Below, piece by piece: positions 49,932 through 63,993 of a DNA stretch of 64,000 nucleotides. The notes under the pieces were generated by a model, which worked only from the letters and a program-made list of their open reading frames with translations, searched no databases and was not told where the DNA came from. Every line of letters begins with the position of its first letter. Position 1 is the first letter of the stretch. Location: assembly GCA_963770565.1 (NCBI GenBank), contig CAVYQE010000002.1, forward strand, positions 830,949 through 894,948. Reading direction: 5' to 3'. Made by a program: the position numbers and the translations under genes. Origin of the DNA: an uncultured Actinomycetota bacterium (GTDB lineage Bacteria; Actinomycetota; Actinomycetes; JAFAQI01).

Positions 49932-49953
49932 GCGATGTTGCCACGGAGCAGCA

Positions 49954-50000
49954 TGGAGCGGGTGACGGGAATCGAACCCGCACTGTCAGCTTGGGAAGCT
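49954..50000 (-). tRNA. 3' fragment of tRNA-Gly(CCC), attachment-site duplication
   Basis: Minus strand AGCTTCCCAAGCTGACAGTGCGGGTTCGATTCCCGTCACCCGCTCCA gives anticodon arm, T arm and CCA; upstream sequence cannot form the acceptor stem or D arm. Confidence 0.88.
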
Positions 50001-52250: not shown

Positions 52251-54400
52251 ATGGGCCGCAACGACCAGCTCGACTACCTCCGCGACCGGTTCGCCGAGCT
52301 CGGGCACGTCGAGCCGGACGAGTCCGATGCCACGCTCGAACGCGTCCACGGCGCTCCGACCGACCGGACGCTGGCGGATTACCCGACGCGGCGCAAGGAG
52401 CTGCTACTCGCGCTGCTCGACTCCCGCGCGGACAAGCGGAGCGCACGGCGGTGATGAAGATCGCGGTGCTGAAGACGAGACCTGACAAGGACCAGGTTGA
52501 CATCGTCGCTCTCTCGGATCGGTGGACAGCAGAGGCGGCCGTGCTGGGATGGGACGGGCTGAGTGTGCAACGGGAGATTGGTCGGGCGAGCCGCCCATCG
52601 GCGCCAACCGCAGCGCTGGTCGAGCAGATGGACCGGGCGATTGTTGAGGCGGTCCGGGCGGCTGGGGCTCGGCGGGCGGTGTTCTCTCGCTCCGATCTGG
52701 CGGCGGAGGTCGCGACCCGGCTGCGGACCGGCGGGTTCGACGCGCACCTGGTCCGGACTCTCATCGAGCAGCTGACCGACCAGGCCCTCGGCACCCCGGA
52801 CGCGGTGACACTGCGCCCGCAGGTCGAGGGATGTCATCGCGGCTCCGACGCCCGCTACGCATCCCGGTCCACGGTGGATGCGGAGCTGCGGATCCTGGGT
52901 GTCGCCGACGCCGGCTGTGCTCGGGGTGTGGCCGTTCTTGACCCGCAACAGGTCCGGGCGGTCGCGAAGCGCCGCGGGCTGGACGCCTCCCAGCAGGCCG
53001 CGCTCGTTCAGGTCACGGGCAGCGGGGACGCGGTCTCGGTGCTGGTCGCGCCGGCCGGGACCGGGAAGACCACCGCGCTCGGCGCCGCGGTCTATGCGTG
53101 GCGTGCCGCCGGGTATCGGATCGTGGGGCTCGCGCCGTCGGCCCGGGCCGCCGCCGAGCTACGGGATGCGACGTTCGCCCCGGCCGACACGGTCGCGAAG
53201 TTCCTCCACGAACACCACAAACCCCCAAGCCCGTTCGCCCTCGAGACCGGCCGGTACCGGCTGCACCCTGGGACGGTGGTGCTCGTCGACGAAGCCTCCA
53301 TGCTCGCCACCACCGACCTCGACGCATTGACCCGAGCAAGCTGGGAGGCGGGAGCGAAGCTGCAGCTGGTAGGTGACCCGGCGCAGATCGGTGCCGTCGA
53401 CGCGGCCGGCGGGATGCTCCCCGCCCTCGCCGAACGCCTGGACGCGCCGACGTTGGACACGGTGCACCGGTTCACCGAAGCCTGGGAGCGCCGCGCATCC
53501 CTAAGGTTGCGGGCCGGAGATCGGACGGTCATTGACGACTACATCGTGGCTGGCCGGGTTCATCACTGCCCCGATGAGACCGCGGCCTGCCAGGCCGTCC
53601 TCGCCAGCTATCTCGACGCGAGCGCTGCGGGGCGCCGGGTGTTGATGCTCGCCCGGACGCACCACGACGTCGACGCCCTCAACACTCTCGCCCGCGCTCA
53701 CGCGATCGAGACCGGGCAGGTCCACGGGCCAGTGCTCCTCGACGGGCCGATGCAGTGGCGGGCCGGGGACCGGCGCCGCGCCACCCGCAACAACCGCACC
53801 ATCACCGTCGGTGCGGACTACCTGCGCAACGGTGACCAGTTCGTCGTCCTCGGCGCCGACCGCGACGGACTTCTTGTCCAGACCGTCGACAGTGGCCGGG
53901 CTGCAAGGCTGCCTGCTGACTACGTGGCTGCGCACACCAGCTACGGGTGGGCCTCGACGATCGACGCCGCGCAAGGCGCCACCGTCGATCACGCGATCCT
54001 GCTTGCCCGACCCGGCATCGACCGCGAACATCTCTACGTCGGGCTCACCCGCGGCCGCCACGCCAACCATGTGGTCGTCTCCCAACCCATCAGCGACGTC
54101 GATCACCACGGGCTGCCGAAAGCCGGGGTGCCTCTGGCGGCCAGAGCAATGCTTGCCGACGCGCTCGGTGTCAGCAGCGTCCAGCAAGCCGCTCACACTC
54201 GGCTCCCCAAGCACCTCCAGGTCGAGCCGGCCACCAAGCGGGTACCAGCTCGGCCCGTGGTTCGACGGCCAACCCCGGCCAGGTCACCGCTCCGGCGGAT
54301 CGAACGGCACCAGCGCAGCATGGAACCCGACCACCACTACCGCGGACTCACACACGATCACGGGCCCGACCACGATCGAGACTTCGGTCGCGGACGATAA
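52251..54400 (+). pseudogene. Truncated MobF/TrwC relaxase-helicase (helicase part only)
   Basis: AVFSRSDL, APAGTGKTT, GLAPSARAA, LVDEASM, VGDPAQIGAV, STIDAAQGATVD, LYVGLTRGR; no N-terminal HUH relaxase motifs; 5' remnant in another frame. Confidence 0.8.
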
Positions 54401-54819
54401 CGAAGAACTATTCGACGGTCCTAGATCAACACGAATCACGCCGAGCCGGCGTTCGCGCTCGCTGGGCATGGGCTCAACTGATGCTCGATATTGACGGTTC
54501 TGATCGGTGATATGGGCAGCCGTGGTTCGCGAGTACGCGACCAGCCTCGGCCGAGGGATGTCGGAAGTGAAGGTCATCGGCACTGCCCGGTGGACCGGTG
54601 AGCGTGAGTGAAGCGGCTAGGATGGTCAGGCCGAGCTTGCCAGCACGCTGCGTGCGAGCACCGGTAGTGGCGCGACCCTTGGTCCAGCATGGCCGCGTGG
54701 TATCAGCGGGTCGGTTCAGTCAGCGCCGTGGGTTGGGGTGCGTGCGACCGGCTGCGACTGAGTTGCGACTGGGGTCGGCGAGGGTCTCCGCAGACCGCAC
54801 ATCTCGCCCGGAGGTTGTC

Positions 54820-56625: not shown

Positions 56626-56677
56626 GTGCCGTTCTTCGACACTCGATCGTCGCGCACTTCGTGCACGTGATCCGGCG
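56626..56677. repeat. 52-bp direct repeat, copy 1
   Basis: GTGCCGTTCTTCGACACTCGATCGTCGCGCACTTCGTGCACGTGATCCGGCG; one mismatch to 57597-57648. Confidence 0.9.
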
Positions 56678-57596: not shown

Positions 57597-57648
57597 GTGC
57601 CGTTCTTCGACGCTCGATCGTCGCGCACTTCGTGCACGTGATCCGGCG
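57597..57648. repeat. 52-bp direct repeat, copy 2
   Basis: Immediately followed by TAGCGT-N6-ATG of the VOC gene. Confidence 0.9.
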
Positions 57649-57660
57649 TAGCGTGCGCGA

Positions 57661-58047
57661 ATGGCACGCCTTGCTGACATCGTGTTCGACTGCGAACATC
57701 CCGCCTCGCTGGCGCGGTGGTGGGCCGCGGCGCTCGATGGCTACCGGGTCGCTGCTTACGACGAAGTTGAACTTGAGCGGTTGCGGGCCCGGGGGGTGTT
57801 CGATCCTGAGGATGACCCGAACGTCTTGGTCGAACCGAAGAGTGGCGAAGGGCCGCGCTTTTGGTTTCAACGGGTGCCAGAGCACAAGGAACATAAGAAC
57901 CGGCTGCACCTCGATCTGCGCGCGGACGACCTCGAAGTTGAGGTGAGCCGCTTCGTTGAAATGGGCGCGACGGAGCTTTACCGACTCGGGACCAACGTGA
58001 CCTTGACGGACCCTGAGGGCAACGAGTTCTGTCTCGGACCGGGCTAG
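57661..58047 (+). CDS. VOC/glyoxalase family protein
   Basis: IVFDCEHPASLARWWAAAL, FQRVPE, KNRLHLDL, DPEGNEFC. Confidence 0.9.
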   Translation: MARLADIVFDCEHPASLARWWAAALDGYRVAAYDEVELERLRARGVFDPEDDPNVLVEPKSGEGPRFWFQRVPEHKEHKNRLHLDLRADDLEVEVSRFVEMGATELYRLGTNVTLTDPEGNEFCLGPG

Positions 58048-58231
58048 CGCGAGGCGATGTCGCGGCCGGTCGGTCCGTTTCAGGGCGCCCGCGAAGTGTG
58101 ATCGCATGTGCTTGCCGGCGTTCACACTGTCGCTATTCGTCTGCGAGGCTGTATTCGACGATCACAACTTGGGATCGGGACGGCGGGCATTGCATCGGAG
58201 TTGAGGGCGTGAGGGAGGGAGCGGAAGCGGT

Positions 58232-58882
58232 ATGCGCATCATCGGAGCTGGCCTCGGTCGGACGGGAACCAACTCGCTGAAGCTGGCGCTCGAGCGGCTT
58301 CTTGGTCGCCCGACCTATCACATGATTGAGGTGCAGCGGCATCTTGACCATGTCCCCACCTGGCGCGCAGCCCTGCGCGGCGAGGCCGTCGACTGGGAGC
58401 CGGTCCTCGGCAATTACGCGGCGACTGTGGACTGGCCAGGTGCGGCGGTCTGGCGTGAGCTAGTTGCCGAGAACCCGGAGGCGGTCGTCCTGCTCTCGAC
58501 GAGACGTGACGCGGCCACCTGGCTGGCGAGCGCGCGGGCGACGGTTATGGACAGCTCTGATCGGCTGGAGGACGAGCCCGACATGCCGGGATACATGGCG
58601 ATGGTCCGAGAGATGTACGAGATGTTTGACCCCCTCTGGCGGGATGACGGCGCTGCGATGACTGCTTATCAGCGGCATGCAGCGTCAGTGCGTCGCGAGG
58701 TCCGCGCGGATCGGCTCGTCGAGTGGCAACCGGGCGACGGTTGGGGGCCACTATGCGTCGCGCTCGGCGCGGCGGTGCCGCCAGAGCCTTTCCCACATGT
58801 CAACTCAACAGAGGAATACCGCGCGCGGCTCAGTCAGATCGAGAGCCGGCTGGCTGCTTCGGGAGACACCATCCACGAATGA
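58232..58882 (+). CDS. Sulfotransferase-like P-loop protein
   Basis: IIGAGLGRTGTNSLKLALERL, YHM, ATVDWP, GDGWGPLC, PFPHVNS. Confidence 0.85.
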   Translation: MRIIGAGLGRTGTNSLKLALERLLGRPTYHMIEVQRHLDHVPTWRAALRGEAVDWEPVLGNYAATVDWPGAAVWRELVAENPEAVVLLSTRRDAATWLASARATVMDSSDRLEDEPDMPGYMAMVREMYEMFDPLWRDDGAAMTAYQRHAASVRREVRADRLVEWQPGDGWGPLCVALGAAVPPEPFPHVNSTEEYRARLSQIESRLAASGDTIHE

Positions 58883-59593
58883 TCGCCATACAGGTGCCGA
58901 CATGGTCACCGGCTCGCGCGAATTGTCATCGAGCTGGTCGTTCTCGATCGTTCGCGTCTCTCTCGACGCGACGGTCTGGGAGGCCGCTATGTTCGGCCGT
59001 GCTGACCCGGGAGGTTGATGTGCGGATCCGAGTCTGTAACCAGTGTCGCTGTCATCGCTCGGACGCGCCAGCGAGCCGCGCGGGCTACATGGAGGCTCTC
59101 GGGCTGGCCCTCAAGCAGCTGGACGGTAGCTCCCTGCTGCCGGCGCGCGCGCGCGCCCGCGCGCGCGCAGTCCTGCGGGTGCAATCACTTCGGAGTGTGG
59201 CCCATGGAACGAGCTACCGCGAGGCTCCTTCGGCTAACGGTGGTGTAGCAGGAGGGGCATAGCAAGACCTCAGGTGAGCGTGGAGTTTGAGCTGGCATCT
59301 GCGCGGCCAGGGCTGTGAGCGACGGCGTGCGGGAATTGCGGTCCCGTGGATACGAGATGCTGCACAATGCCAAGGTCAGAACCGTGGGGAACGGAGCGGC
59401 GCACGTATTCATCACCCGGAAGGCGCCGTCTTGGGCTCTCGTACGCCCCGTCGCTGCACGAGCATGCTGGACATGACGAACGCGATGCACGGCGGGTAGT
59501 GCCGGTTCGCGAGGGCGGCTGGGTTTGGTCGTGACGCAATCAAAACCGCGCTGAGCCGGCGTAAACGATCCTGGGCTGCGGCAGACTTCCAGC

Positions 59594-60422
59594 ATGTCGC
59601 TGTGGGATGTCAGCCGTCCGCAAGTCATCTGCGGTCGCTCGCCACTGCTTGCAGCGGCAGGGTTTGCTGCGCTTGCTGGCCGGGATGACGCCGTTGCCGA
59701 GTGGCTCAGCGCGAACTGCCATTCCGGGATGGACGGTCAAAGACATCGCGCTTCATTTGCTCGACGATGACCTGACATGACCTGGCTTTCTCAGGAGCGT
59801 GATGGCGAACTTAGCGGGCAGATCAACATGTCAGATCGTCGGATCTTTCCGAGGTGCTCGCAGAGAAGAACCAACGGTGGGTAGACGCGGCTCGGGTGAT
59901 GAGCCGACGCGTGGTCGAGGACCTGCCGCAGTGGAGTGGCGAGCAAGTCGACGCGCTTCACGCGGGCCGGGACCTACTTGACGAAGGCTGGGTCTCATGG
60001 GCCAGCGACGAGCCGGTGCCCTACTGGTTCAACCTGGCGCAGGAGTTCACCGAGCGTTGGGTCCATCAACAGCAGATGAGAGAGGCCGTGGACCGCGTGG
60101 AGGACCACGACGTGACCCTTCCGGACGTGCTACGTACCTTCTATTTGGGCCTTCCCTCACCAATTCCGCGGTGCCGTCGGGGCGCGCGTGATCCGAATGA
60201 GGATCGACCCCCTGGGCGACTGGACGCTCAGCGCCACGGACGACGGCGGCTGGAACCTCTCCACAGGATCGCCCGGCAGTGCAGATGCCCGTTTGCATCT
60301 GACGGCTGATGCGGCGTGGCGCATGCTTACCGGCGCCGAGGTGCCTGCAGCGTCGATTACGGCAGAAGGTGACGCCGCCATCGTCGAGGCGCTCGAGCAT
60401 GGTGCGCGCAATCATCGTGTAA
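59594..60422 (+). pseudogene. Maleylpyruvate isomerase N-terminal (DinB-like) domain protein, several frameshifts
   Basis: PGWTVKDIALHLLDDDL, EFTERWVHQQQMREAV and DAAWRMLTG fragments in different frames; ends RAIIV*. Confidence 0.7.
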
Positions 60423-60769
60423 GTGATGCCGGTCCAGATCTGTCGGATTCGCCGCGACAGCCGAGCGCCAGTGCAAGTTCTGCTCAAGGCCGCTCGAGGA
60501 ACAGAAGTGCCGTTTACCTATGCCGACCGTCCGCCTGTCAAGGGTTTGTGTTCTTTTCGTTCTTGTTCTTCGGCGTCGTTCTCGCAGGCGCGTTCCTTCT
60601 GGCGGGCGGAAACGGGGTCAAGGTGGAGCGCCCTACTGGACGAACGACCTTGACGCCGGCGCCGCCCGCCAGATTGTTGTGCGCTGAGAAGAACGCCAGG
60701 TGTTTGTTCGTTAGCGCATGGCGTGTCCTCACCGGTCGTGGGTCTGATTGTGTCGACGGTTGACGGTGA

Positions 60770-61005
60770 GAGCGCCGCGGGCGCCCCAGGCTTACCTTGG
60801 CGCGCGGGCGCATCGTGTCGCCCGGTCACAAGAGGAGTGATGGGGTGCCCCGCGACGGGCATGAGGGTGCGGCCGTTCAATCTAGTACGGGTCGTCCAGC
60901 CGGGGCTGGCGAACAACGGCATATTGGGAGTTGGTCGGCGCACGGTCCCTAAGGTCCTCGGTGGTGGGCTGGTAGGCGGACACGGTCACCGTCCCTCGTC
61001 GTTGG
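60770..61005 (-). ncRNA. Candidate IS1111 bridge/seek RNA
   Basis: Non-coding, structured-looking region 3' of the transposase with short matches to the target flank (TGCCGTT) and to the circle junction (CCATC, AGGTA); boundaries approximate. Confidence 0.55.
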
Positions 61006-61009
61006 TTTG

Positions 61010-62044
61010 CTAGGTGGGAATCTCGATCCAGGCCTGGTCGCCGAGCGCACGTAGCCGGTGGTGACAGCGGCGTGCGAGTTTACGGGCGACCGACAGCCGC
61101 GCTCGACCGCCACCGATGCGATGAGCCAATCGCAGGTAGTAGCCGTTGTCCGGGCTGGTCTTCTTGTGGGCATGCAGCGCGCCCTCATAAAGCGCCCAGC
61201 GCAGCACTGGTGGTCCTTGGCGGGTGAGCCTCGGGCGGCCACGGTTCTTGCCGTCGGAGTCATAGACGGAGATGTCCAGTCCGGCGTGACGCACCGCTTG
61301 TCTAGACGCGGAGAACCGGCGGGTGTCGCCGAGTTCTTCCCAGACCATCGTGGCGAGCAGCGCACCCAACCCGTACTCATGAGACAGCTCCCGCGGTCCG
61401 GGATGACGGCGACCAAACGCGGTGAGCTCCGCGCGCAGCGGCACCAGATCGGCGTCGATCGCCGCGATCATCCGCACCGCCACGTCAACAGCCTGCGCGC
61501 CGGCCGGGGACAGGTCCGGATCGTCAAGCCCGATCTGCACCCGGTCTCCTCGCAACAGCTTGCCGTCAGGCTTGGGCACGCCCTGATGAAAGAAAGTGGC
61601 ATGAGAATTAGTTTGCTGCCATGCCTGCTTGCCCTGGACCAAATCCAGATACAGCCGGACCTTCTCCCGGATCTCCAGGACCTGCCGCGGCGGGATCCAC
61701 GAGTCGTGGATCTCACCCTTCTCCAGTTGCTCCCGAAGCTTCCGTGCATCGATCCGGTCAGTCTTCGCCCCACTGCTTACGGCTTCGTGCACCGGCCACC
61801 TCGGCCGGATCAGCGACATGCACCTCGGCGCCAGCGGCGAGACATTCCTCCGCGATGAACCGCCAACCGGTGCAACCCTCCACCACCAAGCCGACCTTCT
61901 TCTCATCGAACTGAGCGAGCCACTCCGGAAACCGACCCGGTCCGCCGGGCTGATCCGACCCCGCCCAGACTCCCAGTTATCGCAGTCCACCCAATCGAAG
62001 GTGATCTGTTGCCGATGAATGTCCAACGCTCCTACGATCGCCAT
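61010..62044 (-). pseudogene. IS110 family transposase with two compensating frameshifts
   Basis: GALDIH (first D), AKTDRIDA and the C-terminal GLGALLA...GDTRRF...AGL...RQGPPVLRWALYE are in frame; the VVEGCTGWR (E motif) segment ~61770-61920 is in another frame. Confidence 0.85.
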
Positions 62045-62532
62045 ACCCGGACCTCCTCCAGCTCCTGCTGAGGAGACCCGGCCTCACGACCGCAGATCCT
62101 TCTCTGTGCGGAGGGGGTCCGGCATATGCCATCTACTTCACACAGTTGACCCAGCAAGCAAAGCGTGAGTAACGCACCTATAGTCTGCCGCCGACAAGCG
62201 GCGGACGGTGCCGCGGGCAAGAGCGGCGCATATCGTTCAGAGGGTGTCCTTTGCTGCGCTTGCGCCGCTGGTCATTCTTGGTATCGGGATAACCGCGGAC
62301 CTGTGGGGTCTACGCGGACGCGAAGAGGCGTGCAGACTCCGGGAGTCCGGTCGTTTTCGAGGCGGGCACGTTCGTTATCGACACACCCGCCGCATGGGCA
62401 AGCGGGATGCCTGATCCTCTGGATCCTGTTTTTCCCGCTCTATCTCACGTCCCGCGAATAGGCCCATCGCGTGCGGGCAAGTGTCGGCCGCTATGGGCAC
62501 TTCTTGTGACGTTCTTGATAAGGAATGAAGGC

Positions 62533-62945
62533 GTGAACGAGTTTCACATTTCTCGCGGGTGGCTCCGGTTATCCCGGTGGCCAATCTCAAGCGGGCGCTG
62601 CGGCGATATCGCATGCTCGGCTTCTCCTGAGTGCGCTCGTATGGCGGACCGGCCGAGTATGGATACGTCGAGCGAGATGGCGTCGAACTTCATGTGAGCG
62701 AGTCGCCGGATCACGACCGCCATCACGGCGCCGAGGTGTACCTGTTCGTCTCTGATGCTGACGCGGTGTACGCCGCTTGGTTGGCTTCCGGCGTGAAGGG
62801 CCGGTTCATCCGGCCCCACGACCAGGACTACGGCGTTCGCGAGTTCGCTTTCGTCGATCGCGACGGGACGGCGCACCGAGTCGGCTCGCCGCCAACCCAG
62901 AACGGACGAGTCATCGGCCATTCGGGATCGGAACCCGGCGAATAA
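62533..62945 (+). pseudogene. Bleomycin-resistance/VOC family gene with internal stop
   Basis: FSRVAPVIPVANLKRALRRYRMLGFS*VRSYGG...YLFVSDADAVY...DYGVREFAFVDRDG; TGA at 62628. Confidence 0.7.
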
Positions 62946-63017
62946 CGCCGGCTCGCGGCGCTGGCTGTGGACAAGCTCGCGCCTATTGTTCGCTCTTATG
63001 ATCGGATCGTGGTGCGA

Positions 63018-63737
63018 TCAGCGCCGGGGTGGGAGGGCGTCGAACCCCGCGTCGGCCAGCCACTGTCTGGCCCTTCCGGTTCGGGTCTCTGCCGAGTACG
63101 AGTACCAGGAGGAACGCAGGTCGTCGTGGTCATCGAGGACTCGGCGAAAGCGGGAGAAGGCGCCACGGCCATCGATGGCGTCGAGTAGCCGGTCGCGGAG
63201 CGCGGGATCCTGAACTGTCGTGGCGAACTCGCGCATGTCCTCCCACGCCTCGCGCGAACCCTCATTGGGGATGAACAGGTACCGATCCGGATCGTCCTCC
63301 GGGTCCGGTCGCTCCCCGTCGCCCACCCAGTCATCAAGGGCCCCCTCGGGCCAGGCATCGCCGGTGTTGCAATCCAGCACACCGCCGAAGCCCATCTCGA
63401 GAAGGTGTCCTCGAGCAGGTCGGAGACACCGTCGAGGTCGGTGCGGATGCGGCGCCGGCCGGGCGGTAGACCGTCGACGATGGCGAGGAGCAGCTCCGCC
63501 AGCTCAGCGTCGCCGACCCATGACCGTTCAGTGAGTCGCCTCGCGAGGGCCTTGCAGGTGTCCGCGCAGCCGGAGGGGTTGTCCGGAGCGAGCGCCAAGA
63601 TCGTCTCCCCGGCTTCCTGCAAATGCGGCTGCAGTGACTCGGCCTGGACGAGCCCGACAGCGGCATGAGGTTGACCAGGTGGCGGCCGCGATGCGCCATG
63701 ATCCGACCAGATTTCGCGCGCCCTCGTCCGTCGTCAT
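63018..63737 (-). pseudogene. UPF0158 family protein, frameshifted
   Basis: C-part SREAWEDMREFA...LLDAIDGRGAFSRFRRVL...W...ARQWL; N-part (RSWVGDAELAE...DLDGVSDLLE) in another frame, join near 63400. Confidence 0.7.
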
Positions 63738-63942
63738 GAGCCGAGCCTTGCCCAGTCGCCGACCGCCCGCAACTTCGACGTTCTTGGTACGGGTCCCGGG
63801 CCGTCGACCAAGATCGTTGGGCCACATCTGGGCCACGTCTCGTGGCCCAAGGCGGTAAATCAGGGTCTCTGGCGGGCAAGGACGCCGCACTTGTGGAGGC
63901 TCGAAAACCGGCCGTGACCTGCGAAAACACTCCGAAAAAGCC

Positions 63943-63993
63943 TGGAGCGGGTGACGGGAATCGAACCCGCACTGTCAGGTTTGGGGAAGCTGA
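63943..63993 (-). tRNA. tRNA-Gly(CCC) 3' portion (second att copy; runs to window edge, anticodon arm has extra bases)
   Basis: TGGAGCGGGTGACGGGAATCGAACCCGCACTGTCAG identical to 49954-49989, followed by GTTTGGGGAAGCTGA instead of CTTGGGAAGCT. Confidence 0.8.

Follow-up and report, generated by a model that had tools for sequence, protein, structure and literature searches.

The DNA analysed here (the window) is a 64,000-nucleotide stretch of contig CAVYQE010000002.1 from an uncultured Actinomycetota bacterium. At positions 60513-62134 its minus strand carries what we read, with a probability of roughly 0.88, as a decaying insertion sequence (IS) of the IS110 family and IS1111 type that specifies an IS621-like bridge RNA (seekRNA). 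The body of the element (60515-62132, minus strand, 1618 bp) was delimited by aligning the three genomic copies with two metagenomic relatives (L013 and L014) and with an unoccupied site. It is bounded by two copies of a 2-nt core, one at the non-coding-side junction (60513-60514, TT on the plus strand and AA in the transposase sense, target-derived) and one at the transposase-proximal junction (62133-62134, CT on the plus strand and AG in the transposase sense, donor type). Just inside these ends lie subterminal inverted repeats, at 60519-60528 on the non-coding side (TATGCCGACC on the plus strand) and, as its inverted partner with one indel, at 62116-62126 on the transposase-proximal side (GGTCCGGCATA on the plus strand). 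At 10 and 11 nt, these TATGCCG(G)ACC repeats fall within the 7-17 bp typical of IS1111 elements, and those of relatives, read by eye from the termini, are about 12-13 nt long. The transposase pseudogene (61010-62044, minus strand) has 88 nt of non-coding DNA upstream and 495 nt downstream, which is the IS1111 layout. A first-pass annotation had proposed an RNA-guided recombinase of IS1111 type at this locus; its assignment to the IS110/IS1111 type, its bridge RNA 3' of the gene and its extra hairpin stand, while its TA core, its element boundaries and its targeting of repeats do not.

A search of the 4.43-Mb assembly with window 60450-62200 returned two more copies, making three in the genome: copy B (C6:184153-185821), 97% identical to the window copy, and copy C (C1:971454-973032), 93% identical. 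Copy B encodes an intact 343-aa transposase; measured against it, the window gene has lost 1 nt near 61926, gained 1 nt near 61771 and gained a net 3 nt at 61605-61615, which shifts the reading frame of about 52 codons, the catalytic Glu region among them. The transposase of copy C contains many 1-nt deletions; over its whole length this copy differs from the others mainly by single-base deletions in short homopolymer runs, which may be either real decay or a local assembly error.

The intact copy B protein matched PF01548 (E 3.9e-09, 36.9 bits, cut-off 29) and PF02371 (E 1.1e-13, 51.8 bits, cut-off 21.3), giving the IS110-family combination of an N-terminal DEDD/RuvC-like domain with a C-terminal Transposase_20 domain, and also matched NF033542, ‘IS110 family RNA-guided transposase’ (147.2 bits, cut-off 140). 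When compared with solved transposases it was similar to IS621 (chain 8wt6, E 1.9e-08) and ISCro4 (E 6e-07), the significant match to IS621 being confined to the C-terminal domain, where the Ser of YDSDG aligns with that of YESGS in IS621. All 32 aligned sequences have D8, E56, D96, D99 and S262, the complete DEDD plus Ser set, and S262 of copy B probably corresponds to the catalytic S241 of PMC11208158, the deposited chain being offset by 2 residues. The C-terminal motif, GLDISVYDSDG, keeps the G, L and S of the IS1111 logo GL-P----S(t)G, has I in place of P and has its final G displaced by one residue; the pattern given in PMC11187229, from which the window family departs, is a logo and not a strict definition.

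To place the element among its relatives, we scored 8000 candidates from a large protein collection, of which 2174 matched at E<=1e-20. The best was 95% identical and nearly all were metagenomic, with a Mycobacteriales metagenome-assembled genome (MAG) and Pseudonocardia among the few named sources; the closest plasmid-borne relatives, at ~51% identity, are from Rhodococcus. At strict thresholds, no close relatives were found in 4 other genomes of the genus (E<=1e-30), in 37 other genomes of the order (E<=1e-40) or in a 400-genome sample of the class (E<=1e-50), and a scan of genome contigs with one protein gave a single relative at 49% identity. Adding this locus to 80 obtained from a metagenome scan with a transposase alignment gave 81 family loci. 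The non-coding-side end could be located in 42 elements, the window copy (copy A) and copy B included.

The assembly search also revealed an unoccupied paralogous site on C6 in which the two flanks abut (C6:6157, GTGCCGTTACTTCAC; read directly from C6 as ...GAAGTGCCGTTACTTCACAC...). Subtracting the empty from the occupied site leaves an insert of 1620 bp, and the sequence GTGCCG-TT-ACTTCAC fits a 2-nt core plus a 1620-bp insert exactly; the core is present at both junctions and nothing else is duplicated, as in IS110 site-specific insertion. The flanks belong to a 4.7-kb segment that occurs twice in the assembly, once with the IS and once without (window 57598-60514 resembles C6:3297-6164 at 96%, and window 62127-63993 resembles C6:6158-8011 at 97.5%). 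This repeated segment could be a duplicated mobile or integrative segment, or could reflect strain heterogeneity in the assembly, for which the contamination estimate is 3.97%. Six DNA sequencing runs contained at most 0.18 of the sampled words, and four of these runs gave only short fragments, with no contig across the junction, the empty site or the circle junction.

Bridge RNA and its guides

Comparison with relatives indicates that a bridge RNA is encoded directly past the transposase stop codon, in the initial ~220 nt of the 3' non-coding region; in this RNA a target loop precedes a donor loop, the order described in the first-pass annotation. When each element's non-coding region was scanned for the reverse complement of its flank, the matches fell at one homologous place, 60-110 nt past the stop codon, in the context cccgN-[guide]-U-GCCGCC, while the flanks that they matched were mutually unrelated (GTGCCTG, GGGGACC, GGAGCA, ACAGGGC, CCGCGT and others). 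In the window copy this first target guide is UGCCGUU (60915-60921, minus strand; LTG in the IS621 convention), which has the letters of plus-strand TGCCG+TT at 60508-60514 and pairs with the opposite strand of the left target flank and core. These are exactly the coordinates at which TGCCGTT had been proposed as a target guide. To assess the association, we permuted flanks among non-redundant elements, one per distinct guide (36 distinct guides). The guide paired at 201 of 288 positions, compared with 120.9 ± 7.3 after permutation (maximum 155), a value that none of 20000 permutations reached, and at least 6 of 9 flank positions were paired in 31 of 39 rows.

The second target guide, which lies just 5' of the closing stem, is followed in the same segment by the core and handshake bases; across the family this segment comprises the other flank's letters, a variable base N, the core and the first 1-2 donor bases. 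In the window it reads (GUAC)U-AG-AU (60880-60888, minus strand) and is complementary to plus-strand AT|CT|A at 62131-62135. It paired at 76 of 105 positions, as against 39.3 ± 4.5 expected (0/20000 permutations), and an unbiased column-by-position scan ranked the target and donor guide diagonals top. The earlier note had found only a weak right-target guide, GTA near 60886; the guide that emerges from the comparison is U-AG-AU (60884-60880), which covaries with the flanks, though its match past the first flank base is still weak. Covariation between guides and target flanks extends to both sides of the core, and the comparison shows a target loop in which UGCCGUU would read the left flank and core, and U-AG-AU would complement the core and the first right-flank base and make a handshake with the last two bases of the donor's left end.

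For the donor loop, the segment AGGUA-AG-C (60790-60797, minus strand) complements plus-strand TACCT (60515-60519), the core and the last base of the left target flank. Its family form, CC-N-AG[A/G]UA-AG-[G/C], comprises donor-end letters, the core and one target-flank base. Of the 8 rows with an AGGT donor end, 7 have AGGUAA in the guide, and of the 32 with an AGAT end, 30 have AGAUAA; the G or A in the guide tracks the donor end in 37 of 40 rows. Pairing of this guide (171/192 against 157.6 ± 2.6) and of the donor-loop handshake bases (57/64 against 41.9 ± 2.5) exceeded all of 20000 permutations in each case. Covariation shows AGGUA-AG-C to be the complement of the donor right end, the core and one target handshake base, bearing out the proposal that AGGTA at 60797-60793 serves as guide for the core and right donor end. 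A candidate left donor guide lies in the motif CACCCCAUC (60839-60847, minus strand), where CCATC is present at 60843-60839 as had been described; in the RNA, CCAUC has the letters of plus-strand CCAT+C (62129-62133) and probably reads the donor left end. The motif is nearly invariant in the family, and the donor end opposite it is invariant.

Two further matches were noted in this region. The RNA contains TATGCCG, matching the window's subterminal repeat, which was taken as chance because L013 lacks the match. Separately, RNA column 41, just 3' of the 5' strand of stem P3, complements donor position 12, a variable base of the subterminal repeat, in 73% of rows against 40% expected, and this covariation is not continued by the neighbouring columns.

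The first-pass annotation had suggested, among other checks, a covariance model of the 3' end and a test of covariation with the flanks across relatives. The covariation is that described above. The covariance model, R1, matches the window at 60787-60962 (minus strand, 85.4 bits, E 1.6e-20) with stems P3, P1, P2 and P4, a target loop and a donor multiloop; hairpin P2 (60892-60912, minus strand) closes the target loop, and hairpin P4 (60804-60825, minus strand), in the donor multiloop, shows compensatory change in 3 of its 5 pairs. In the 4.43-Mb genome R1 has exactly three matches, which are the three IS copies (copy B 95.9, window copy 85.4, copy C 84.3 bits), and it lies downstream of the gene in 70 of the 81 relatives' loci; 9 of the 11 misses have <150 nt downstream, the other two being L060 and L078. 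RNAalifold, run on 39 sequences, recovered the target-loop closing stem, the inner hairpin and the donor hairpin, with compensatory change in 15 of 20 pairs. In a hand-built structure of 29 pairs (P3, P1, P2 and P4), 87.4% of cells are paired and 19 of the 29 pairs are compensatory, compared with 11.2 ± 1.6 in shuffles (0/500), and when partners are displaced by 1-3 columns no more than 53.4% of cells pair. In stem P3 most of the family has UGAUG/CAUCA, for which the window clade has GAGGA/UCCUC.

The guides were also put to a blind test on an element of Rhodococcus jostii RHA1 plasmid pRHL2 (NC_008270.1, annotated ‘IS110 family transposase’), whose transposase is 50.6% identical and whose R1 match scores 112 bits. 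Guide 1 was read first, as GAGGUUCCU; the flank, fetched afterwards, was CACAGATA-AG-GAACCTC, in agreement at 9 of 9 bases. The second guide, GGAAAGAA, fits the other junction, TTCGAA-AG-AT.

Accessory hairpin and predicted junction promoter

Beyond the bridge RNA, the non-coding region contains a long hairpin at 60599-60672 (minus strand, -54.2 kcal/mol, z -6.4), which had been noticed at 60598-60673 and which proved to be conserved in relatives, with an invariant core (GUCAAGGUCGUUCGUCC ... GGGCGCUCCACCUUGAC) and a variable outer stem. The module occurs in 26 family loci, about 102-133 nt from the 3' end where that end is defined, and also in the pRHL2 element. Its invariant parts are an 8-bp stem (GUCAAGGU/ACCUUGAC), an internal loop (CGUU/CUCC) and an inner stem (CGUCC/GGGCG); the tip is variable, and the outer stems differ in sequence with pairing kept. 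Across the core columns 90.9% of cells are paired and 6 of 18 pairs are compensatory.

We read the hairpin as an accessory RNA module made in the transposase sense, and see about an even prospect that it forms the 3' end of a transposase-RNA transcript, stabilises that transcript or binds protein. A somewhat less probable explanation is that it does not act as an RNA domain together with the recombinase, being instead an intrinsic terminator or insulator without a U-tail, or a protein site or cruciform at the DNA level. Such a role would suit its position between the bridge RNA and the outward -35 box and its great stability, and the module is missing from family members whose non-coding region is short (336-400 nt), which makes it dispensable for recombination as such. 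A plain terminator, however, would not need an invariant 8-bp stem, internal loop and inner stem across enzymes that share only 50-60% identity, and the terminator scan found no U-tail at the hairpin. In addition, one position forms a U-G pair in 25 of 25 sequences, which fits an RNA in the transposase sense and argues against a symmetric DNA site. An Rfam match to the glutamine riboswitch at 60587-60648 on the minus strand, overlapping the inner hairpin, is probably due to chance (18.5 bits against a gathering score of 35, E 0.24) and was rejected because the 3' pairing strand, GAAGGAACGC, is absent from the flanks of the relatives' hairpins. The accessory hairpin is not described in the available portions of PMC11187229, PMC11208160, PMC11208158 or PMC12288879.

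Nearer the end lies the outward TTGACA that had also been reported, a -35 box at 60536-60541 on the minus strand. It would stand 19 nt upstream of TAAGAT, a -10-like hexamer that would be assembled across the junction of a circle; for such a circle, with one core copy, the predicted size is 1620 bp. When the ends are joined at a CT core, all 37 relatives with both ends available have a TTGNNN box 16-19 nt from the junction hexamer; the spacer is 17 nt in 22 of the 37, and the hexamer is TAAGAT in 32. A promoter scan found no sigma-70-like promoter in the linear element. Circle-junction promoters are known for ISEc11 and others (PMC11187229, PMC12288879).

Recombination core and target choice

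The position of the core was settled by the family as a whole. At the non-coding side, the end reads cTTGAC-N-(subterminal repeat)-CACAGATA followed by AA or AG in the transposase sense in 42 of 42 elements. At the transposase-proximal side it reads (flank)-N-AG-ATGACATGTG, where N varies, giving AA, GA, CA or TA with the following A. Since N is identical to the base in one RNA column in 33 of 33 elements, it does not belong to the core, and the constant register at one end together with the variable N at the other leaves AG in the transposase sense as the shared core. From these alignments the core reads as CT on the plus strand, not TA. In the transposase sense, the window copy has GTGAAGT-AG-ATGGCA at its transposase-proximal junction and CATAGGTA-AA-CGGCAC at its non-coding-side junction, and the empty site has GTGAAGT-AA-CGGCAC. 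The target of the window copy would thus have had AA where the donor had AG, each junction keeping one version, with a mismatch tolerated at one core position. We had considered a single-A overlap as the core, and replaced it by the 2-nt AG with one mismatch, given that AG stands at both junctions of L013 and L014, which are the closest of the metagenomic relatives with both ends, and that the first flank base in the family is G.

The first-pass annotation had instead reconstructed a TA core, an element at 60517-62133 and a target GTGCCGTT-TA-CTTCAC, a geometry that would require the empty site to have lost one T and that we regard as improbable. TA is indeed present at both junctions of the window copy (60515-60516 and 62134-62135), as it is in copy B, in L014 and, in a shorter form, in copy C. 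This dinucleotide, however, lies one base out of register, being the last flank base plus the first core base, and is found at both junctions only because the donor end of the window clade also ends in ...GGTA. In L013 and most of the family the transposase-proximal dinucleotide is GA, AA or CA, the AA/AG register at the other junction has no exception, and the variable base, being read by an RNA column, is a target base. Because the empty site is a paralog, a 1-nt indel there is possible, and it is the family-wide register that decides the question. A CT core also reproduces the empty site exactly and yields the predominant TAAGAT at the circle junction. In the earlier reconstruction the target contains a T that the empty site lacks, and the circle junction is one base off.

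The three copies differ in what they retain. Copy B (about C6:184160-185775) has an intact enzyme and RNA and an altered transposase-proximal terminus, AA-CGG-ACATATG as against AG-ATG-ACATATG in all relatives; as a result it has AACGG, five bases of the target, on both sides in direct repeat. Strands seem to have been exchanged aberrantly here, 3 nt inside the end, and the terminus no longer fits the RNA's handshake bases or the left donor guide. The window copy has cognate ends, a broken transposase and a mutated RNA stem P1. If it moves at all, copy B would have to provide enzyme and RNA in trans. Decay is heavy in copy C.

With respect to target choice, the element had been suggested to aim at repeats containing TGCCGTT at 56626 and 57597. 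These repeats carry the half-site AACGGCAC; they have a G before the core where the guide reads U, both are empty in the window, and none of the three IS copies lies in a TGCCGTT repeat of this type, so we do not retain the suggestion. As a separate observation, the edges of the 4.7-kb segment are 51-53-nt repeats that are also found elsewhere (56626-56677, 57597-57648, 49950-50000 and 63939-63991). Another repeated element of ~2 kb, at window 52435-54450, recurs at 82-87% identity at C1:965845-967862, C11:315149-317020 and C11:537027-539057. Together the two target guides predict an ideal 15-nt site; no sequence in the genome comes closer to it than 2 mismatches.

Several points weigh against the reading of this locus as an IS1111-type element with an IS621-like bridge RNA. 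Guide 2 fits the window flank poorly past the first base (2/4), as it does in copy C and L014, and 24 other TAACGGCA sites in the genome are unoccupied, so guide matches alone do not explain site choice; the poor match and the unoccupied sites together suggest that insertions are partial-match events, or that activity is low. The empty site, at 96-97% identity, is a paralog and not a true pre-insertion allele. For the donor loop, two rows with the donor end AGTT (L032 and L053) keep AGAUAA in the guide, CCAUC (family motif CCCAUC) does not covary with the donor end because both are invariant, and the base 5' of AUC varies in relatives with no compensating change. Permutation tests overstate independence because elements share descent, an effect reduced by taking one element per guide, and the alignment fitted by the covariance model (A4), in which 92% of cells are paired and 23 of 29 pairs are compensatory, leans towards the model's own structure. 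Rfam scans gave no match at E<=1 over 3.5 kb and nothing near any gathering score over 506 nt, and no RNA run is listed for the window stretch.

The first-pass annotation had itself cautioned that its guide matches could be partly chance. When the non-coding region was shuffled 5000 times with dinucleotides preserved, TGCCGTT arose in 99 shuffles (2%), CCATC in 1753, AGGTA in 654 and the ordered trio in none. Within the window alone the two 5-mers are therefore at chance level, and their validation comes from the comparison with relatives. That the matches are coincidental, the conserved non-coding region untranslated or regulatory and the target selected by protein alone is very unlikely: it would agree with the frequency of 5-nt matches in the window copy and with the many unoccupied half-sites, but guide columns follow unrelated flanks across 36 distinct guides, the pRHL2 flank was predicted in full, the stems show compensatory change and the enzyme falls in a family named for RNA-guided transposition.

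Proposed mechanism and comparison with known systems

By analogy with IS621 and ISEc11, the element would excise as a 1620-bp circle whose junction would assemble a promoter from TTGACA and TAAGAT. This promoter would drive one transcript carrying both the transposase and the RNA, and the transposase-RNA complex would then pair the circle with its target and exchange strands at the core. More tentatively, a large soil subfamily of IS1111-type elements (largely actinobacterial where the host is named) may carry a third functional RNA part in addition to the two loops of the bridge RNA, a hairpin of 75-110 nt with an invariant core. The bridge RNA would depend on it for being made, stabilised or loaded, or it would regulate the recombinase. 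The family would persist in this genome through a division of labour, copy B contributing enzyme and RNA and the window copy cognate ends. We consider this extended proposal rather doubtful.

For the window itself, the locus is an ordinary, decaying IS copy of a known element type. The wider value lies in some 40 naturally occurring pairs of guide and flank from an IS1111-type subfamily of high GC content, in which the guides, the CT core and the handshake bases can be read directly. The case indicates that the logic of IS621 holds also where the RNA lies 3' of the gene. The subfamily offers candidate enzymes native to high-GC actinobacteria for bridge-recombinase engineering, and a cultured, non-pathogenic host with a relative, Rhodococcus jostii RHA1 with plasmid pRHL2, in which the predictions can be tested. 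Like the window element, the pRHL2 element has an AG core (transposase sense), a bridge RNA, an accessory hairpin, a TTGAC-like box and a CACAGATA end; it differs in its target, TTCGAA-AG-GAACCTC, and in a tandem duplication of the donor-loop half of its bridge RNA. The duplication (L096 2650-2860) is seen as a second R1 match of 47.2 bits and as a ~100-nt repeat visible in the sequence.

Among characterised systems, the element is close to the seekRNA-bearing IS1111 elements ISEc11, ISPa11 and ISKpn4 (Siddiquee et al. 2024, PMC11187229). In this group the RNA lies 3' of the gene, with a top-strand match 5' of a bottom-strand match and the two overlapping, and the same arrangement, with overlap at the insertion point, is found here. 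Also shared are the long non-coding region 3' of the transposase, the subterminal inverted repeats, the size of the transposase (330-350 aa there, 343 aa here), a circle-junction promoter, which is predicted from sequence here, and a need for the flanks. Unlike these elements, the window family is a high-GC subfamily, with relatives in a Mycobacteriales MAG, Pseudonocardia and Rhodococcus at 50-61% identity; it has the GLDISVYDSDG motif, a non-coding region of ~495 nt and the extra conserved hairpin.

With IS621 (Durrant et al. 2024, PMC11208160; Hiraizumi et al. 2024, PMC11208158) the element shares a two-loop RNA, the DEDD plus Ser residues and a core that is CT, here on the window plus strand. 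Handshake guides were described for IS621, and on the window plus strand the guide arrangement is likewise common to both: in each loop the 5' guide, which in the donor loop is a candidate, corresponds to the left flank and the 3' guide to the right flank plus core on the opposite strand, followed by 1-2 handshake bases. Unlike IS621, the window element has long subterminal repeats, its protein similarity is distant (E 1.9e-08) and its RNA is encoded 3' of the gene, with donor guides that would lie in a multiloop, where IS621 has a simple internal loop. In this last respect the window RNA appears similar to IS1111-group RNAs, for which PMC11208160 places the donor-binding bases in a multiloop.

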